The translations under genes and the position numbers were made by a program. Positions 1,195 through 11,570 of a DNA stretch of 64,000 bases are shown here, piece after piece; the first letter of the stretch is position 1; the number at the start of each line of letters is the position of its first letter. The notes beneath the pieces are model-generated. The model was not told the DNA's origin, searched no databases, and was given only the letters and a program-made list of their open reading frames with translations. Source of the stretch: Escherichia coli (lineage in GTDB: Bacteria; Pseudomonadota; Gammaproteobacteria; Enterobacterales; Enterobacteriaceae); the NCBI RefSeq assembly GCF_003018255.1, contig NZ_CP027440.1. The stretch is one strand, 5' to 3'.

Positions 1195-3822
1195 TTATTC
1201 TTCTTCTGGCTCGTCGTCAACGTCCACTTCCGGAGCGATTTCATCGTCCCCTTCCGCGGCACTGCCGTCGATGGTATCCAGATCTTCCTCGTCAACCGGT
1301 TCAGCAACACGTTGCAGACCCACTACGTTTTCATCTTCCGCAGTACGGATGAGGATCACGCCCTGGGTGTTACGGCCCACGATGCTGATTTCCGAAACGC
1401 GAGTACGTACCAGCGTACCGGCATCGGTGATCATCATGATCTGGTCGCAGTCATCTACCTGCACCGCGCCAACCACTAAACCGTTACGTTCGGTAACCTT
1501 GATGGAGATAACCCCTTTCGTCGCACGCGACTTAGTCGGGTATTCCGCCACTGCGGTACGTTTACCATAACCGTTCTGCGTTGCGGTGAGGATTGCGCCA
1601 TCGCCACGAGGCACGATCAGAGAGACGACTTTATCGCCTTCGCCTAAACGAATACCGCGAACACCGGTGGTGTTGCAGCCCATCGCACGGACAGAAGACT
1701 CTTTAAAGCGCACCACTTTACCTTCGGCGGAGAACAGCATTACTTCGTCTTCGCCGCTGGTCAGGTCAACGCCGATCAGCTCATCGCCTTCAACCAGTTT
1801 GATCGCCACTTTACCGGCGGTACGCAGACGGTTGAACTCGGTGAGGACGGTTTTCTTCACAGTACCGTTAGCGGTCGCCATGAAGACTTTCACGCCTTCT
1901 TCAAACTCGGTCACCGGCAGGATCGCAGTGATACGTTCGTCCTGCTCCAGCGGCAGCAGGTTGACGATCGGACGACCACGCGCGCCACGAGTGGCTTCTG
2001 GTAACTGGTAGACCTTCATCGAATAGACGCGGCCACGGCTGGAGAAGCACAGAATATGGTCGTGGGTGTTCGCCACCAGCAGTCGGTCAATAAAGTCTTC
2101 TTCTTTAATACGTGCGGCAGATTTGCCTTTCCCGCCACGACGCTGCGCTTCGTATTCAGAAAGCGGCTGATACTTCACGTAGCCCTGGTGAGAGAGTGTT
2201 ACCACCACATCTTCCTGGGTGATTAGATCTTCCAGGTTGATGTCAGCGCTGTTGGCAGTGATTTCAGTACGACGTTTGTCGCCGAACTGTTCACGAACCA
2301 GCTCCAGCTCTTCGCGGATCACTTCCATCAGACGATCGGCACTGCCAAGAATACGCAGCAGTTCTGCGATCTGATCCAGCAGCTCTTTGTATTCGTCGAG
2401 CAGTTTTTCATGCTCAAGGCCGGTCAGTTTCTGCAAACGCAGATCCAGAATCGCCTGAGCTTGCTGTTCGGTCAGGTAGTACAGACCATCACGCACGCCG
2501 AACTCTGGCTCCAGCCATTCCGGACGCGCAGCATCATCGCCCGCACGTTCGAGCATGGCGGCAACGTTGCCCAGCTGCCACGGATTAGCCACCAGCGCAG
2601 TTTTCGCTTCTGCAGGCGTCGGCGCATGACGGATCAGTTCGATGATCGGGTCGATGTTCGCCAGCGCTACGGCTAATGCTTCAAGGATATGAGCACGATC
2701 GCGAGCTTTACGCAGTTCGAAAATAGTACGACGAGTCACCACTTCGCGGCGGTGACGAACAAACGCCGCGATGATGTCTTTCAGGTTCATGATCTTCGGC
2801 TGACCATGGTGCAATGCCACCATGTTGATACCGAAAGAAACCTGCAACTGGGTCTGGGAGTAGAGGTTGTTGAGCACAACTTCACCGACCGCATCGCGTT
2901 TCACTTCAATCACGATGCGCATACCGTCTTTGTCAGACTCGTCACGCAGCGCGCTGATGCCTTCCACGCGTTTTTCTTTTACCAGTTCCGCAATCTTCTC
3001 GATCAGGCGCGCTTTGTTTACCTGATACGGAATTTCGTGGACGATAATGGTTTCACGTCCGGTTTTGGCGTCAACTTCCACTTCAGCACGGGCGCGGATA
3101 TATACCTTGCCGCGACCGGTACGGTAAGCTTCTTCAATACCGCGACGACCGTTAATGATTGCCGCCGTCGGGAAGTCCGGCCCGGGGATGTGTTCCATCA
3201 GCCCTTCAATGCTGATGTCTTCATCATCGATATACGCCAGACAACCGTTGATGACTTCCGTCAAGTTGTGCGGCGGGATGTTGGTTGCCATACCTACGGC
3301 GATACCGGAAGAACCGTTCACCAGCAGGTTAGGAATTTTGGTTGGCATGACGTCGGGAATTTTTTCCGTGCCGTCATAGTTATCTACGAAATCGACCGTC
3401 TCTTTTTCGAGATCGGCCATCAGTTCATGGGCAATTTTCGCCAGACGGATTTCCGTATAACGCATTGCCGCCGCAGAGTCGCCGTCGATGGAACCGAAGT
3501 TACCCTGACCGTCTACCAGCATGTAACGCAGCGAGAATGGCTGCGCCATACGGACGATCGTGTCATAAACCGCCGAGTCACCATGGGGATGGTATTTACC
3601 GATTACGTCACCAACGACACGGGCAGATTTTTTATAGGCTTTGTTCCAGTCATTGCCTAGTACGTTCATGGCGTAAAGTACGCGACGGTGTACCGGCTTC
3701 AGGCCATCTCGGACATCTGGCAGCGCACGGCCAACAATGACCGACATCGCATAATCCAGATAGGAGCTCTTCAGCTCTTCCTCAATGTTGACCGGTGTAA
3801 TTTCTCTCGCAAGGTCGCTCAT
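1195..3822 (-). CDS. gyrA: DNA gyrase subunit A
   Basis: 875-aa ORF starting [17 protein letters not shown], with the GyrA active-site and QRDR region (..[20 protein letters not shown]..) and the acidic C-terminal tail DEPEEE. Confidence 0.97.
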
Positions 3823-3968
3823 CTAACCGCTATCCCTCTACTGTATCCCGGATTCAAAGGTCGCAAATTATAACACAGCCGCGCAGTTTGAGGTAAACCT
3901 ATACGCTTTATTCACATCCAATGCCTGATATACTCGTTTGTCTTGCCAATTACGGAGTAGAAGTGCCA

Positions 3969-4691
3969 ATGAATGCCGAAAAATCGCCGGTAAACCATAA
4001 CGTAGACCACGAAGAGATCGCTAAATTTGAAGCTGTCGCCTCCCGCTGGTGGGATCTTGAAGGTGAGTTCAAACCGCTGCACCGCATTAACCCGCTGCGT
4101 CTGGGCTATATTGCCGAGCGTGCTGGCGGTTTATTTGGCAAAAAGGTGCTCGATGTCGGTTGTGGCGGCGGCATTCTGGCCGAGAGTATGGCGCGCGAAG
4201 GTGCGACGGTGACCGGTCTGGATATGGGCTTTGAGCCATTGCAGGTGGCAAAGCTGCACGCGCTGGAAAGCGGCATTCAGGTGGATTACGTGCAGGAAAC
4301 CGTGGAAGAGCACGCGGCAAAACATGCCGGGCAGTATGATGTGGTGACCTGCATGGAGATGCTGGAGCACGTCCCCGATCCGCAGTCAGTGGTCAGAGCC
4401 TGTGCGCAACTGGTGAAACCGGGCGGCGATGTCTTTTTCTCGACGCTTAACCGCAACGGCAAGTCATGGCTGATGGCGGTGGTTGGCGCGGAATATATTT
4501 TGCGCATGGTGCCCAAAGGCACGCATGATGTGAAGAAGTTTATTAAACCGGCAGAGCTGCTGGGCTGGGTGGATCAGACCAGTCTTAAAGAGCGACATAT
4601 AACCGGGTTACATTACAACCCGATCACTAATTCCTTTAAGCTCGGCCCCGGCGTGGATGTGAACTATATGCTGCACACGCAGAATAAGTGA
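3969..4691 (+). CDS. ubiG: bifunctional 3-demethylubiquinone / 2-polyprenyl-6-hydroxyphenol O-methyltransferase
   Basis: ORF 3921-4691; the internal start [20 protein letters not shown] at 3969 matches the UbiG N-terminus as I recall it. SAM-methyltransferase motif [13 protein letters not shown]. Divergent from gyrA. Confidence 0.92.
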
Positions 4692-4831: not shown

Positions 4832-7800
4832 TTACCATTTCACCGTCATCGACAAAAACCCTGCCGTCTGGGCAAAATCATCACTCCCTTTCTGCCACGC
4901 CACGCTGCCGCGCAGGGACACTCGCTGACTGATATTGCCCGTGACTCCCACTTTTATTTCACCCCGTTGCTTCACCCCATCGTCACTGATAGTGCTGCCA
5001 TCTTCTTCAATTTCCGTCGCATGGGGATCGTGATAATAATTCAGATCTAATGTTGGTATGACATGAACAGCGGTACGCCATTCGCTGTGTAAACCCAGCC
5101 GCGTCTGAATATCATCACCCTGCGATTGTGACACGCGCGCATGGTTAGCGGCGGTAAAATCATCCTGCTGCACGCCCTGATAAATCACCTGCGCCTGCGG
5201 TTCAATCACCACACCACGCCCCGGTAACCATTGATACCCGGCTTCCAGCGAGGCGATAATCCCCGACGAGTGGTAATGATCCACGCCATCGTCTTGTTCA
5301 GAAACATCATTGTTAAACCACGCATATTGCAGCCAGCTATCCAGCCAGACCCCCTGCTTCTGATTACCGTGCTGATACCAGCTTGAGGTCAGCCCAACGG
5401 CATAACCGTGGTTCTGGTTATCGGCGCGAGTTCCGCTCATATTCGAGCGGCTGTCGCCCTGGTTATCGCTGTAGCCACCAACAATCCCAAGCATCCACTC
5501 GCCATCATCACCCCAGTGCCTGCTAAACAGATCGCCGCTAAGCTGCACCGTAGAAGTGTCTTCATGCTGAGCCAGTTGCCCTGCCGCCGTGTAATGATAA
5601 CGCCCGCCGATAACGCGTAAATTCAGCGTCTGACCATCGCCACCAGCGTGATCGCGTCGCTCCATCACAAATGCCTGATTTGCCGCACGTAGGTTATTAA
5701 AATATCCACCAACTTTGGCATTCAACACCGGCTGGTAAGCAGGCGTAGGTCCAGGGTCGGGGGTTGGGTCGGGATCCGGCGTGGGATCAGGATCTGGAGT
5801 CGGGTCCGGATCGGGCGGCGGCGTCGGAGTGACTTCTTGCGATCGCAGATACCAGTCATTGTTATCTTCCACCAGCGTATAGTCATACGCCCCCATATTG
5901 ACGTAGCCGCTTCCTGCCAGACGGAACTGCGCATTGTTTTGAAACTGCGTGGGATCAGCTGCGAAATCAACCACTTTAATACCTGTAGATGTCGGCTCAC
6001 CAATACCCGTAATGGGGTTAATTACCACGGCCGTGTTGCCAGCAGTATTACCGTTCAATACCAGTTGGTCACTTGCCGAGTCATCGCCGTTTAATTCGCT
6101 GTCGAGCAGTAGCGTACCGCCGCCGGTATAATCACCATTTACCGTCAGCGTGTCGCCAGCGACGCCATTTTGCAGGCTAATCGCACCGGACGTATTGGTC
6201 AGATTGCCATTAACCGTCACGTCGGAAAGATAAGTCAGGCTGTCAGTTTCAAGGTTGGTATTAAGCTCGCCTGTCAGCGTCACGCCATCGGTGGCATTCA
6301 CCAACGTACCGTCGCCGCTAAACAGCGAGGCATCCAGCACCTGGTTCGTATCCTGCTGCGTCAATCGCAACACAGTACCATCGGTTATGTCGATATCGCC
6401 GCCAGAGGTGGCATCGATTGAGCGAATATCCTGATTTTGCCCGGTTTCAAAAACACCGTCTTCCCCCACCCACAGTGAAGAAACATAAGGAATAATATTC
6501 TCCGCTTCACCTTTTAGCGTTCCGTCCTCCACACGTACCGCAGACGTCGCAGTGCCGCTGGCGGTCAACTCCAGCGTACCGCCGCCACTTTTAGTCAACG
6601 TGCTTACGCTATCCAGTTGTTGCCCGGTACTATCCGCCATCAACCCGCCCCATTGCGTATCTACGCCATCCTCAACGTGTATTTCGCCATCAGCGCGCAT
6701 TTCAATATTCCTGCCCTGACCTGTTGTAGCCGAGCGAGTGTCAACATCAGTCGTCACATCCATTTCACTGTGTTGTTGGGGATCTGTGAAGATCACTGAA
6801 CGGTTGTAACTTGTGTCCCCCAATTGCGAATTATCGCTGACTTCAAGCGTACCGGAGGCGATTTGCGTATTACCGAGATAACCGTTGTTATTCGCCAGCG
6901 TTACGCGCTGATCCCCCGCATTAATGACGACATAAACGCCATTCTGGCTGGCATCACTGCCGCCAATATGTAAATCATCGCCACTGCTGATATCAACGAC
7001 ATCATTACTGCCAATCACTGTCCCCCCGCTGCCGCTGATTTGCAGACCGTCATTGTATGAGCTATCGCCATCCCAGGTGGTGAAATCAGAGAGATCCAAT
7101 ACTCCGCCATTTAGCACGATCGATTGCGGATCGCTCTGCATTGCCCGTAAATCGGCCTGATTCCCCGCTAGCGACAATACGGCGTTATCTTCCACCACAA
7201 TATCGCCGGTTAATGCCATCGACTGCGCCCCTGTCAGGAGATAGCTGCCATCTTGCGCTACCGTCAACTGTCCTTCACCCTGAATCGAGCCGGAAAAACC
7301 GCCCTGGTTTACGGTAACATTGCCGCCTGCGTCGATATTCAAAATGCCATTAGCAAAACCGGTTAATGAGTGCACAAACGTTTGTTGTGTATTGCCAACA
7401 TTCAGTTCTGCCTGATACTCAGAATGAACAGTGCTGCCGACCATCAGACCAAAGCAATCCTGCGGATCGCTCTGACAGTGCGTGTCGCCGACATTCATTA
7501 ACTCATCGCTGCGCCCCAACGTCACCTCGCCATTCTGGATACTTATCTCGCCGGTAAACGCATTATTGTCGGCATTGAGGACTAACTCTCCCGCTCCCTC
7601 TTTAACGATGACTCCCGTTCCGGCAAGAGAATCAATCGCGCCATCGTTGCTGGTATTGCCTATTACCAGCGTTTTATCGGCGGCAATGTTAAATTCAGCC
7701 ACACTATGACCGATATACATAAAGCCCCCCGCCGCTGCCGTCGCCGAATGGTCATATCCCGAGGCGCTGTTATTTTCATCAATCATCACACCATTGTTTT

Positions 7801-8596
7801 GGTCATAATTATCATCAACAGAAATATCAATAAGATACGGGGATGTGGTGCTGCTGGTATAAATTGCTCCGCCATAACCTTCTGCATAGTTATTGGTAAA
7901 GGAGGTATTATTAATTATCGTTTTTCCTGAAAGATGTGTGTTATCCGTACTATTATCCGTAACATCAATAGCGCCGCCATCCCCATCACTATAACTTGTT
8001 GATGTATATGCCTGGTTATTATTAAAAGCATCATCACTTAAATAGTCGTCATTATTGATGGTATAAATTGCACCGCCTTTGCCGTCATTAGCGATGTTAT
8101 TGTGAAATACGGCGTTAGTGACACGTAAATCGGCGGCACCGGTATCATTGGTACCGGCAGAATAGATTGCTCCGCCATAGCCTCCTGCAACATTACTGTC
8201 GAAAATAACATTCGCAAGATTTATCGTTGAGTTTTCTTTAGCAAAGATAGCCCCACCATTATTATATTCGCCACTAACCGAGTTATCAGCAAACAGGGTC
8301 ATCCCTGTTTCATTTTGTGGTGAAATCGTAAATTCAGCACTTTGCTGCAAAAATACTGCGCCACCGCTGGCATTATTGGCCATACCCGAAAAAATCAACC
8401 ATTGCCCATCCGCGATGCTCCAGTCCTGCATATTGCCCGAAAGGCTTTGCCTGCTGGCCTGACAGTTCGCTTTGATATCATATCCCTGGCATGAATCGAT
8501 GACCGCTGCGGCACCGTTACCAGAGAAAAGAGATGCAATCATTGACGGGAGTAAAGATAAATACTCCTTGCGTAGAAAGATAATCCGCATATTCAT
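4832..8596 (-). CDS. yfaL: AIDA-I-type autotransporter adhesin (passenger with beta-helix repeats, Pro-rich linker, C-terminal beta-barrel)
   Basis: 1254-aa ORF with an N-terminal signal peptide (true start may be the Met 2 codons in, at 8590), repetitive GGAIY / N-rich passenger, a TPDPDP linker and a C-terminal barrel domain ending ..FLSMTVKW. Confidence 0.9.
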   Translation of the reverse strand: MNMRIIFLRKEYLSLLPSMIASLFSGNGAAAVIDSCQGYDIKANCQASRQSLSGNMQDWSIADGQWLIFSGMANNASGGAVFLQQSAEFTISPQNETGMTLFADNSVSGEYNNGGAIFAKENSTINLANVIFDSNVAGGYGGAIYSAGTNDTGAADLRVTNAVFHNNIANDGKGGAIYTINNDDYLSDDAFNNNQAYTSTSYSDGDGGAIDVTDNSTDNTHLSGKTIINNTSFTNNYAEGYGGAIYTSSTTSPYLIDISVDDNYDQNNGVMIDENNSASGYDHSATAAAGGFMYIGHSVAEFNIAADKTLVIGNTSNDGAIDSLAGTGVIVKEGAGELVLNADNNAFTGEISIQNGEVTLGRSDELMNVGDTHCQSDPQDCFGLMVGSTVHSEYQAELNVGNTQQTFVHSLTGFANGILNIDAGGNVTVNQGGFSGSIQGEGQLTVAQDGSYLLTGAQSMALTGDIVVEDNAVLSLAGNQADLRAMQSDPQSIVLNGGVLDLSDFTTWDGDSSYNDGLQISGSGGTVIGSNDVVDISSGDDLHIGGSDASQNGVYVVINAGDQRVTLANNNGYLGNTQIASGTLEVSDNSQLGDTSYNRSVIFTDPQQHSEMDVTTDVDTRSATTGQGRNIEMRADGEIHVEDGVDTQWGGLMADSTGQQLDSVSTLTKSGGGTLELTASGTATSAVRVEDGTLKGEAENIIPYVSSLWVGEDGVFETGQNQDIRSIDATSGGDIDITDGTVLRLTQQDTNQVLDASLFSGDGTLVNATDGVTLTGELNTNLETDSLTYLSDVTVNGNLTNTSGAISLQNGVAGDTLTVNGDYTGGGTLLLDSELNGDDSASDQLVLNGNTAGNTAVVINPITGIGEPTSTGIKVVDFAADPTQFQNNAQFRLAGSGYVNMGAYDYTLVEDNNDWYLRSQEVTPTPPPDPDPTPDPDPTPDPDPTPDPGPTPAYQPVLNAKVGGYFNNLRAANQAFVMERRDHAGGDGQTLNLRVIGGRYHYTAAGQLAQHEDTSTVQLSGDLFSRHWGDDGEWMLGIVGGYSDNQGDSRSNMSGTRADNQNHGYAVGLTSSWYQHGNQKQGVWLDSWLQYAWFNNDVSEQDDGVDHYHSSGIIASLEAGYQWLPGRGVVIEPQAQVIYQGVQQDDFTAANHARVSQSQGDDIQTRLGLHSEWRTAVHVIPTLDLNYYHDPHATEIEEDGSTISDDGVKQRGEIKVGVTGNISQRVSLRGSVAWQKGSDDFAQTAGFLSMTVKW
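5745..5830 (-). repeat. in-frame Pro/Asp/Thr tandem repeat (PTPPPDPDPTPDPDPTPDPDPTPDPGPTP) inside yfaL
   Basis: Near-perfect 18-nt periodicity on the coding strand; linker between the passenger and translocator domains. Confidence 0.7.
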
Positions 8597-9284: not shown

Positions 9285-11570
9285 ATGAATCAGAATCTGC
9301 TGGTGACAAAGCGCGACGGTAGCACAGAGCGCATCAATCTCGACAAAATCCATCGCGTTCTGGATTGGGCGGCAGAAGGACTGCATAACGTTTCGATTTC
9401 CCAGGTCGAACTGCGCTCCCACATTCAGTTTTATGACGGTATCAAGACCTCTGACATCCACGAAACCATTATCAAGGCTGCCGCAGACCTGATCTCCCGT
9501 GATGCGCCGGATTATCAGTATCTCGCCGCGCGCCTGGCGATCTTCCACCTGCGTAAAAAAGCCTACGGCCAGTTTGAGCCGCCTGCGCTGTACGACCACG
9601 TGGTGAAAATGGTCGAGATGGGCAAATACGATAATCATCTGCTGGAAGACTACACGGAAGAAGAGTTCAAGCAGATGGACACGTTTATCGATCACGACCG
9701 TGATATGACCTTCTCTTATGCTGCCGTTAAGCAGCTGGAAGGCAAATATCTGGTACAGAACCGCGTGACCGGCGAAATCTACGAAAGCGCCCAGTTCCTT
9801 TATATTCTGGTTGCCGCGTGCCTGTTCTCGAACTACCCGCGTGAAACGCGCCTGCAATACGTGAAGCGTTTTTACGACGCGGTTTCCACATTTAAAATTT
9901 CGCTGCCGACGCCAATCATGTCCGGCGTGCGTACCCCGACTCGTCAGTTCAGCTCCTGCGTACTGATCGAGTGCGGCGACAGCCTGGATTCCATCAACGC
10001 CACCTCCAGCGCGATTGTTAAATACGTTTCCCAGCGTGCCGGGATCGGCATCAACGCCGGGCGTATTCGTGCGTTGGGTAGCCCGATTCGCGGTGGCGAA
10101 GCATTCCACACCGGCTGTATTCCGTTTTACAAACATTTCCAGACAGCGGTGAAATCCTGCTCTCAGGGCGGTGTGCGCGGCGGTGCGGCAACACTGTTCT
10201 ACCCGATGTGGCATCTGGAAGTGGAAAGCCTGCTGGTGTTGAAAAACAACCGTGGGGTTGAAGGCAACCGCGTGCGTCATATGGACTACGGGGTACAAAT
10301 CAACAAACTGATGTATACCCGTCTGCTGAAAGGTGAAGATATCACCCTGTTCAGCCCGTCCGACGTACCGGGGCTGTACGACGCGTTCTTCGCCGATCAG
10401 GAAGAGTTTGAACGCCTGTACACCAAATATGAGAAAGACGACAGCATCCGCAAGCAGCGTGTGAAAGCCGTTGAGCTGTTCTCGCTGATGATGCAGGAAC
10501 GTGCGTCTACCGGTCGTATCTATATTCAGAACGTAGACCACTGCAACACCCACAGCCCGTTTGATCCGGCTATTGCACCAGTGCGCCAGTCTAACCTGTG
10601 CCTGGAAATCGCCCTACCGACCAAACCACTGAACGACGTCAACGACGAGAACGGTGAAATCGCGCTGTGTACGCTTTCTGCTTTCAACCTGGGCGCAATT
10701 AACAGCCTGGATGAACTGGAAGAGCTGGCAATTCTGGCGGTTCGCGCACTCGACGCACTGCTGGATTATCAGGATTACCCGATCCCGGCCGCTAAACGTG
10801 GAGCGATGGGGCGTCGTACGCTGGGTATTGGTGTGATCAACTTCGCTTACTACCTGGCGAAGCACGGTAAACGCTACTCCGACGGCAGCGCCAACAACCT
10901 GACGCATAAAACCTTCGAAGCCATTCAGTATTACCTGCTGAAAGCGTCTAATGAGCTGGCGAAAGAGCAAGGCGCGTGCCCGTGGTTTAACGAAACCACT
11001 TACGCGAAAGGGATCCTGCCGATCGATACCTATAAGAAAGATCTGGATGCCATCGCTAATGAGCCGCTGCATTACGACTGGGAAGCACTGCGTGAGTCAA
11101 TCAAAACGCACGGCCTGCGTAACTCCACGCTTTCTGCTCTGATGCCGTCAGAGACCTCTTCGCAGATCTCTAACGCCACTAACGGTATTGAACCGCCGCG
11201 TGGTTACGTCAGCATCAAAGCGTCGAAAGACGGTATTCTGCGCCAGGTGGTGCCGGACTACGAGCATCTGCACGACGCCTATGAACTGCTGTGGGAAATG
11301 CCGGGTAACGATGGCTATCTGCAACTGGTGGGTATCATGCAGAAATTTATCGATCAGTCGATCTCTGCTAACACCAACTACGATCCGTCACGCTTCCCGT
11401 CAGGAAAAGTGCCGATGCAGCAACTGCTGAAAGACCTGCTCACCGCCTACAAATTCGGGGTCAAAACGCTGTATTATCAGAACACCCGTGACGGTGCTGA
11501 AGACGCACAAGACGATCTGGTACCGTCAATCCAGGACGATGGCTGCGAAAGCGGCGCATGTAAGATCTGA
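9285..11570 (+). CDS. nrdA: ribonucleoside-diphosphate reductase 1 alpha subunit (class Ia)
   Basis: 761-aa ORF starting [26 protein letters not shown] (ATP-cone), catalytic Cys/Glu region, C-terminal CESGACKI. Confidence 0.97.

Follow-up and report, generated by a model that had tools for sequence, protein, structure and literature searches.

A proline-rich linker between the passenger and the barrel of the Escherichia coli autotransporter YfaL: a degenerate repeat in one allele and a copy-variable 18-nt repeat in a sister family

The pertactin of Bordetella pertussis contains proline-containing passenger repeats, the GGXXP region 1 and the PQP region 2, whose unit number varies between alleles. 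These repeats are loops of the passenger, in contrast to the repeat described here, which forms the spacer between the passenger and the barrel of YfaL. In TibA, a self-associating autotransporter of ETEC, a proline-rich domain (residues 627-677) lies between the junction region and the membrane domain (PMC3835316). The proline-rich segment of YfaL occupies the same position in an AIDA-I-type autotransporter, a likeness drawn from the published description. In YfaL itself, residues 786-1250 of the K-12 protein, linker included, are reported to display heterologous proteins (PMC7138890), and yfaL is listed among the positively selected genes of E. coli (PMC9110714). Proline-rich spacers between junction and barrel, as in TibA, and repeat-number polymorphism in autotransporters are already known, and the YfaL linker is one more case. 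A literature search for yfaL together with VNTR/MLVA found no paper, and an MLVA paper lists its loci without gene positions; the allele census and the series of one, two and three copies given below may be undescribed, although as results they are of an ordinary kind.

The gene lies on the minus strand of the window, the whole 64,000-nt stretch of E. coli DNA that was analysed. Counted from the first ATG, its open reading frame encodes 1254 residues and ends with the stop codon at 4832-4834; the RefSeq homologues start two codons downstream, at 8590. The protein matches the NCBIfam equivalog NF007285 (YfaL/EhaC, AIDA-I family autotransporter adhesin) at 2717.8 bits, above the cut-off of 1459, and the alignment is full-length, from residues 3-1254 of the protein to model positions 1-1250, which places it in the YfaL/EhaC family and bears out the gene name given in the preliminary description. 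The autotransporter beta-domain PF03797 of Pfam matches residues 993-1232. The neighbouring reading frames of 875 residues (1195-3822), 256 residues (3921-4691) and 761 residues (9285-11570) correspond in size to gyrA, ubiG and nrdA, consistent with the conserved position of yfaL between ubiG/gyrA and nrdA; two related loci (L017 and L024) have the same order, with GyrA, a methyltransferase and a ribonucleotide reductase typed by Pfam. With a 601-nt query around the linker, a single locus annotated yfaL is found in 5,419 of 5,426 complete E. coli genomes. One of these matches is on a record typed as a plasmid instead of a chromosome. The plus strand carries no open reading frame of at least 100 residues overlapping the linker segment; a feature on that strand was considered and rejected, as the plus strand is here only the reverse complement of proline codons. 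The features of the locus are as follows.

4832..8596, minus strand: yfaL/ehaC coding sequence (open reading frame list, translation, NF007285, and the yfaL annotation of E. coli matches)
5834..6166, minus strand: C-terminal end of the passenger (junction or autochaperone beta-helix), residues 811-921 (TIGR01414 match starting at residue 811, model strands to residue 921, alignments to IcsA and AIDA-I)
5741..5830, minus strand: proline-rich acidic linker, residues 923-952 (codon table, unit comparison, periodicity test, pLDDT below 50)
5819-5830, minus strand: linker unit TPTP
5801-5818, minus strand: linker unit PPDPDP
5783-5800, minus strand: linker unit TPDPDP
5765-5782, minus strand: linker unit TPDPDP
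5747-5764, minus strand: linker unit TPDPGP
5741-5746, minus strand: linker end TP
5675..5719, minus strand: alpha-helical segment, residues 960-974 (helix at model residues 179-193, and the best structural matches given below)
4835..5629, minus strand: twelve-stranded outer-membrane beta-barrel (translocator), residues 990-1254 (PF03797, model, Foldseek)

The passenger end of YfaL closes with the conserved motif DWYLRS, and residues 811-921 can be aligned with two structures of the IcsA autochaperone, 3ML3 and 5KE1, as well as with AIDA-I (4MEE). The linker that follows at residues 923-952 reads TPTP PPDPDP TPDPDP TPDPDP TPDPGP TP, in which 15 of the 30 residues are proline. The preliminary description had placed four TPDPDP units at 5745-5830; the repeat is real, with two exact and two imperfect units and an extent of 5741-5830. 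An AlphaFold model of residues 782-1254, built on an alignment of 19 sequences (mean pLDDT 80.6), shows beta-strands that end at residue 921, then a coil at residues 923-956, where pLDDT is below 50 and secondary structure is absent, a helix at residues 960-974 and finally 12 long strands at residues 990-1253. In related autotransporters, the counterpart of this helix plugs the barrel pore. The closest solved structure to the C-terminal 473 residues, by sequence as well as by fold, is the AIDA-I transport unit 4MEE; the sequence match has an E-value of 5e-39, and Foldseek aligns the model to it with an E-value of 3.3e-28 and a target TM-score of 0.93. The best fold matches are the beta-domains of AIDA-I, EstA, EspP, BrkA, Hbp and NalP. 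The protein thus has the 12-stranded barrel and the pore helix after the passenger that define a type Va autotransporter, and residues 923-952 have the character of a spacer, a proline-rich, low-confidence coil between the junction region and the pore helix. With strands on one side of the coil and the helix and barrel on the other, the linker does lie between passenger and translocator and keeps them apart, as had been proposed from the sequence.

In AIDA-I (4MEE), the passenger end is likewise followed by a linker, the pore helix and a 12-stranded barrel. The linkers differ, about 15 non-repetitive residues of AIDA-I (...HLPTSDTRQYRPE...) lying opposite the 30-residue proline-rich repeat of YfaL. 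In distant homologues of the AIDA family (29-38% identity), a spacer is present at the same spot, flanked by the conserved WYL(T/R/S)S motif and the beginning of the pore helix, and is very variable in length and proline content; examples range from ...TNPDGPGDGNQSGGGDK... to over 45 residues made up of TPDP/EPTP repeats. One genome per species was scanned with the back-translated EDNNDWYLR pattern; the scan yields three loci only and is read qualitatively. The E. albertii spacer has 33 residues in another unit layout (PPDP TPDP TPDPDPDP TPDP TPEP TP), a divergent 'E. coli' has a spacer of 35 residues, and a Pseudocitrobacter MAG has one of about 54 residues that consists partly of X-Pro-Pro triplets. 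Among relatives, the composition and position of the spacer are conserved; its sequence and length are not.

At the DNA level, the repeat of the window allele is degenerate. Tandem Repeats Finder reports only 5766-5812, with a period of 18, 2.6 copies, 75% matches and a score of 52. Pairs of linker units share 11-14 of 18 bases, comprising 10-12 of the 12 first and second codon positions and 0-3 of the 6 third positions, and exact runs at offset 18 reach at most 5 nt. Matches at offset 18 number 47 of 72 in the linker against 18.9 +/- 4.0 over all positions, the maximum of the 64-kb window. When the linker peptide is redrawn with synonymous codons according to the gene's own usage, 50.7 +/- 2.4 matches result, slightly above the observed 47. 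Since the peptide alone accounts for at least the matches observed, the DNA of the window linker carries no repeat signal beyond the peptide. The repeat of the window allele is real at the protein level and degenerate as DNA, so that the 18-nt tandem repeat first described holds as a periodicity of the peptide and not as a series of near-identical DNA units. Copy number does not differ among close genomes of the window type either: all 60 genomes nearest the window (99.0% identity) have the same linker length. The window allele is not slippage-prone, its longest exact repeat being 5 nt and each unit having its own synonymous codons.

For positions 5500-6100 of the window, no RefSeq complete E. 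coli genome is more than 99.0% identical, and the 60 best matches, all at 99.0%, include ST648-type isolates. The protein identity between the window YfaL and K-12 YfaL is only 83% (compared with L034 and L035). In the three-allele full-length comparison, identity per 100-residue bin is 68-85% in the passenger vs 92-98% in the barrel. Broken copies of yfaL, annotated or called, also occur: one lacks the C-terminus (L003), one has an internal stop (L028) and one is split into three reading frames (L017).

The length of the linker was taken as the stretch between WYLRS and AYQP in 100 rows, drawn as two evenly spaced samples from a ranking of 5,426 complete genomes; in the DNA, the segment lies between GACTGGTATCTGCGATC and CAGCCGGTG. 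The matches fall into length classes, and all of their length differences are located in the linker. Linkers of 33 residues (65 of 100 rows) and 27 residues (23 of 100) are the most frequent, followed by 25 and 35 residues (4 rows each), 37 residues (2 rows) and 21 residues (1 row), the frequencies of the 25-, 33-, 35- and 37-residue classes being estimates from these 100 rows. The remaining row has a 168-nt in-frame deletion that extends into the linker. The protein database adds alleles of 21 and 23 residues; nearly all of its matches are fragments below about 830 residues, and it yields neither a usable census nor a full-length Shigella sonnei linker. The linker length therefore differs between strains, from 21 to 37 residues in complete E. 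coli genomes, which agrees with the earlier expectation, and the repeat count is not identical in all alleles.

All indels in the linker are multiples of 6 nt, corresponding to whole X-Pro dipeptides. Without the linker, the annotated genes take two lengths across six linker lengths, 3654 nt (12 alleles) and 3660 nt (3 alleles). The window also gives 3660 nt: with the RefSeq-type start at 8590 its gene measures 3,759 nt, of which the linker takes up 99 nt. The sole other indel in three full-length alleles is one of 2 residues at positions 546-547, counted from MRIIF. The linker is an indel hot spot of yfaL, and nearly all indels of the gene are found there. This excess could reflect mutational bias, relaxed constraint or selection for length.

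Within an allele type, the length is uniform: besides the 60 genomes nearest the window, all 14 sampled 27-residue alleles, at 95.7-100% identity, have equal linker lengths. The window-type and K-12-type alleles of 33 residues differ at 46-50 of 600-660 flank sites (about 7-8%) and have the same length. Across the 33-residue alleles, each unit keeps its own codons, namely ACT CCA/C GAT CCT GAT CCC in unit 2, ACG CCG GAT CCC/T GAC/T CCA in unit 3 and ACC/A CCC GAC CCT/G GGA/GAA CCT in unit 4. These unit-specific codons, retained across alleles, indicate that the four units are positional orthologues that have not been homogenised. The fifth residue of the last unit differs between alleles, being G, E, A or I. 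Alleles with linkers of 25 and 35 residues fall in one clade, in which the flanks differ at 8-11 sites per 660 nt; a 24-nt deletion plus a 6-nt insertion sets the two lengths apart. Most differences between alleles are old indels of 6, 12, 18 and 24 nt together with substitutions, and not changes in the count of 18-nt units. One 27-residue allele (L013) has flanks nearer to the K-12-type flanks than to those of the other 27-residue alleles, so recombination between yfaL alleles is evident and counts of independent events are blurred.

Larger deletions also end inside the linker. In NZ_CP178670.1 (L012), the 168-nt in-frame deletion fuses ...FAADPT to PDPDPTPDPEPTP; two further in-frame deletions (P0009 and P0010) join ...GAYDYT to PAYQP and ...DPTQFQN to PTPDPEPTP. 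All three take out the last passenger strands, and short DPT/TP microhomology may be involved in them. In addition, dozens of draft assemblies of S. sonnei, and some of E. coli, break within the yfaL linker (L021-L027; P0028-P0115). The upstream contigs end at slightly varying points (...ACACCGGATCCTGA) and the downstream contigs always begin with CGGCCCCTACGCCT; relative to the K-12 layout, about 14 nt are absent, and neither contig end carries IS sequence. The break could stem from insertion of an IS, from expansion of a perfect repeat or from a drop in coverage.

In the 27-residue 'DPIP' family, the linker has the form ...PPDPDP DPTPDP DPTPDP IP and contains two copies of GACCCAACACCCGATCCT. 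Exact runs at offset 18 reach 17-20 nt in two of three alleles and 8 nt in L013. The maximum exact repeat is 17-38 nt in DPIP alleles of two or three copies, compared with 11 nt in the K-12 type and 5 nt in the window type. Here, the adjacent DNA units are near-identical and the copy number differs among close relatives. On the PPSPP background, one copy is present in L017 and L033, two in L006 and three in L028 and L029; on the PPLPP background, one copy is present in L031, two in L008 and L032 and three in L030. Inside each background, the flanks differ at 0-2 sites per 600 nt; L033 is the exception, and its high number of ungapped differences is probably due to a change in length of 3 nt at another place in the gene. 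Of two O111:H8 strains whose flanks are identical, one has a single copy of GACCCAACACCCGATCCT and the other has two. The occurrence of one, two and three copies on identical flanks indicates slippage at a low rate.

The frequency of these changes was counted in complete genomes with short queries across the repeat under strict E-value limits, which only ungapped full-length matches pass; long megablast identity bands mix gaps with mismatches and were left out of the counting. One copy of GACCCAACACCCGATCCT is found in 22 genomes, two copies in 1,200 and three copies in 10, and none of the 1,232 DPIP-family genomes has four or more. Accordingly, 32 of 1,232 genomes (2.6%) depart from two copies and 97.4% keep two. 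The DPIP repeat resembles the VNTRs used in MLVA in being an in-frame 18-nt unit present in one to three copies among otherwise identical alleles, and differs from them in its very low variability, with only 2.6% off two copies. In one genome (NZ_CM160084.1, H237), the match of the linker query to a two-copy DPIP allele is 122 nt long and not 115 nt; this 7-nt insertion is either a would-be frameshift or a sequencing error. The proneness to slippage claimed at the outset for the linker thus falls away for the window allele, with its 5-nt maximal run and 60 of 60 invariant neighbours, and stands for the DPIP family, where one, two and three copies occur on identical flanks. Old indels and ongoing slippage both occur, in different alleles.

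Taken together, the linker is very probably the ordinary proline-rich spacer of YfaL/EhaC, in which composition and register are selected, while the window allele is stable and the DPIP allele slips. In this reading, an acidic X-Pro run of about 30 residues without a regular fold joins the passenger end, after DWYLRS, to the pore helix. Judged from its composition, its most likely role would be that of a stiff, extended stalk holding the passenger off the mouth of the barrel. A polyproline-II-like chain extends by about 3 Å per residue, from which we infer that the range of 21-37 residues would change the reach by roughly 50 Å; an altered surface exposure, as suggested at the outset, might follow from this. 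Selection would act on the composition and the X-Pro register and not on the exact sequence or length; for this reason, in-frame indels of whole dipeptides would be tolerated and the indels of the gene would collect in the linker. In the window allele, the divergence of the four units at synonymous sites leaves almost no substrate for slippage, and the length is stable in the lineage. In the sister DPIP family, a recent duplication would have made the near-perfect 18-nt tandem unit, whose copy number changes recurrently between one, two and three.

The same variation could be seen as a contingency-type hypermutable repeat, in which frequent 18-nt slippage changes the length of the adhesin within clones as an adaptive switch. 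The changes of DPIP copy number on identical flanks, with variants in 32 of 1,232 genomes, fit this proposal, but the 5-nt exact run of the window allele, its invariant length in the 60 nearest genomes, the 97.4% of DPIP genomes at two copies and the lack of any with at least four do not, and every change is in frame, which leaves no room for on/off switching; it is very unlikely. Errors of assembly or sequencing in a GC-rich repeat are a scarcely credible source of the length differences, even though many drafts, especially of S. sonnei, break in the linker and one complete genome has a 7-nt insertion: independent complete genomes from different laboratories carry every length class with one and the same sequence, the differences are in frame and in multiples of 6 nt, and a segment of about 100 nt or less is shorter than a single read. 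Assembly collapse of the window linker is rejected on the same grounds, the segment of about 90 nt being shorter than a read and the same length being present in many independent complete genomes.

The length classes could also be adaptive, tuned to the thickness of O-antigen or capsule or to escape from antibodies or phages, as opposed to drifting neutrally. The report of positive selection on yfaL (PMC9110714), the far greater divergence of the passenger than of the barrel, the exchange of G, E, A or I in the last unit and the dominance of two length classes all point in this direction. The O111:H8 strains with both one and two copies, however, argue against a tight coupling to the O-antigen, and neutral indels in a tolerant spacer fit the pattern too, which makes adaptive classes unlikely. 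A wider proposal holds that linker length in YfaL and similar AIDA-type adhesins is a selected 'reach' trait whose classes track polysaccharide thickness or host niche; indels in dipeptide steps and, in some alleles, 18-nt slippage would then adjust how far the beta-helix projects through LPS and capsule. We regard this as quite improbable. The spacer with selected composition and register and tolerated length remains the preferred explanation.

In conclusion, the linker result brings no new mechanism and no new question, and its significance is modest. YfaL is a near-universal adhesin of E. coli and a widely used surface-display anchor, and the display constructs (786-1250) contain the linker, for which the natural linkers of 21-37 residues offer a ready-made series for the effects of spacer length on display and adhesion. 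Allele comparison of yfaL and pan-genome clustering must handle the in-frame indels of the linker. The stable, degenerate allele of the window and the copy-variable, perfect-repeat allele of the DPIP family, set side by side, indicate that DNA identity between the units, not repetition of the peptide, predicts slippage.
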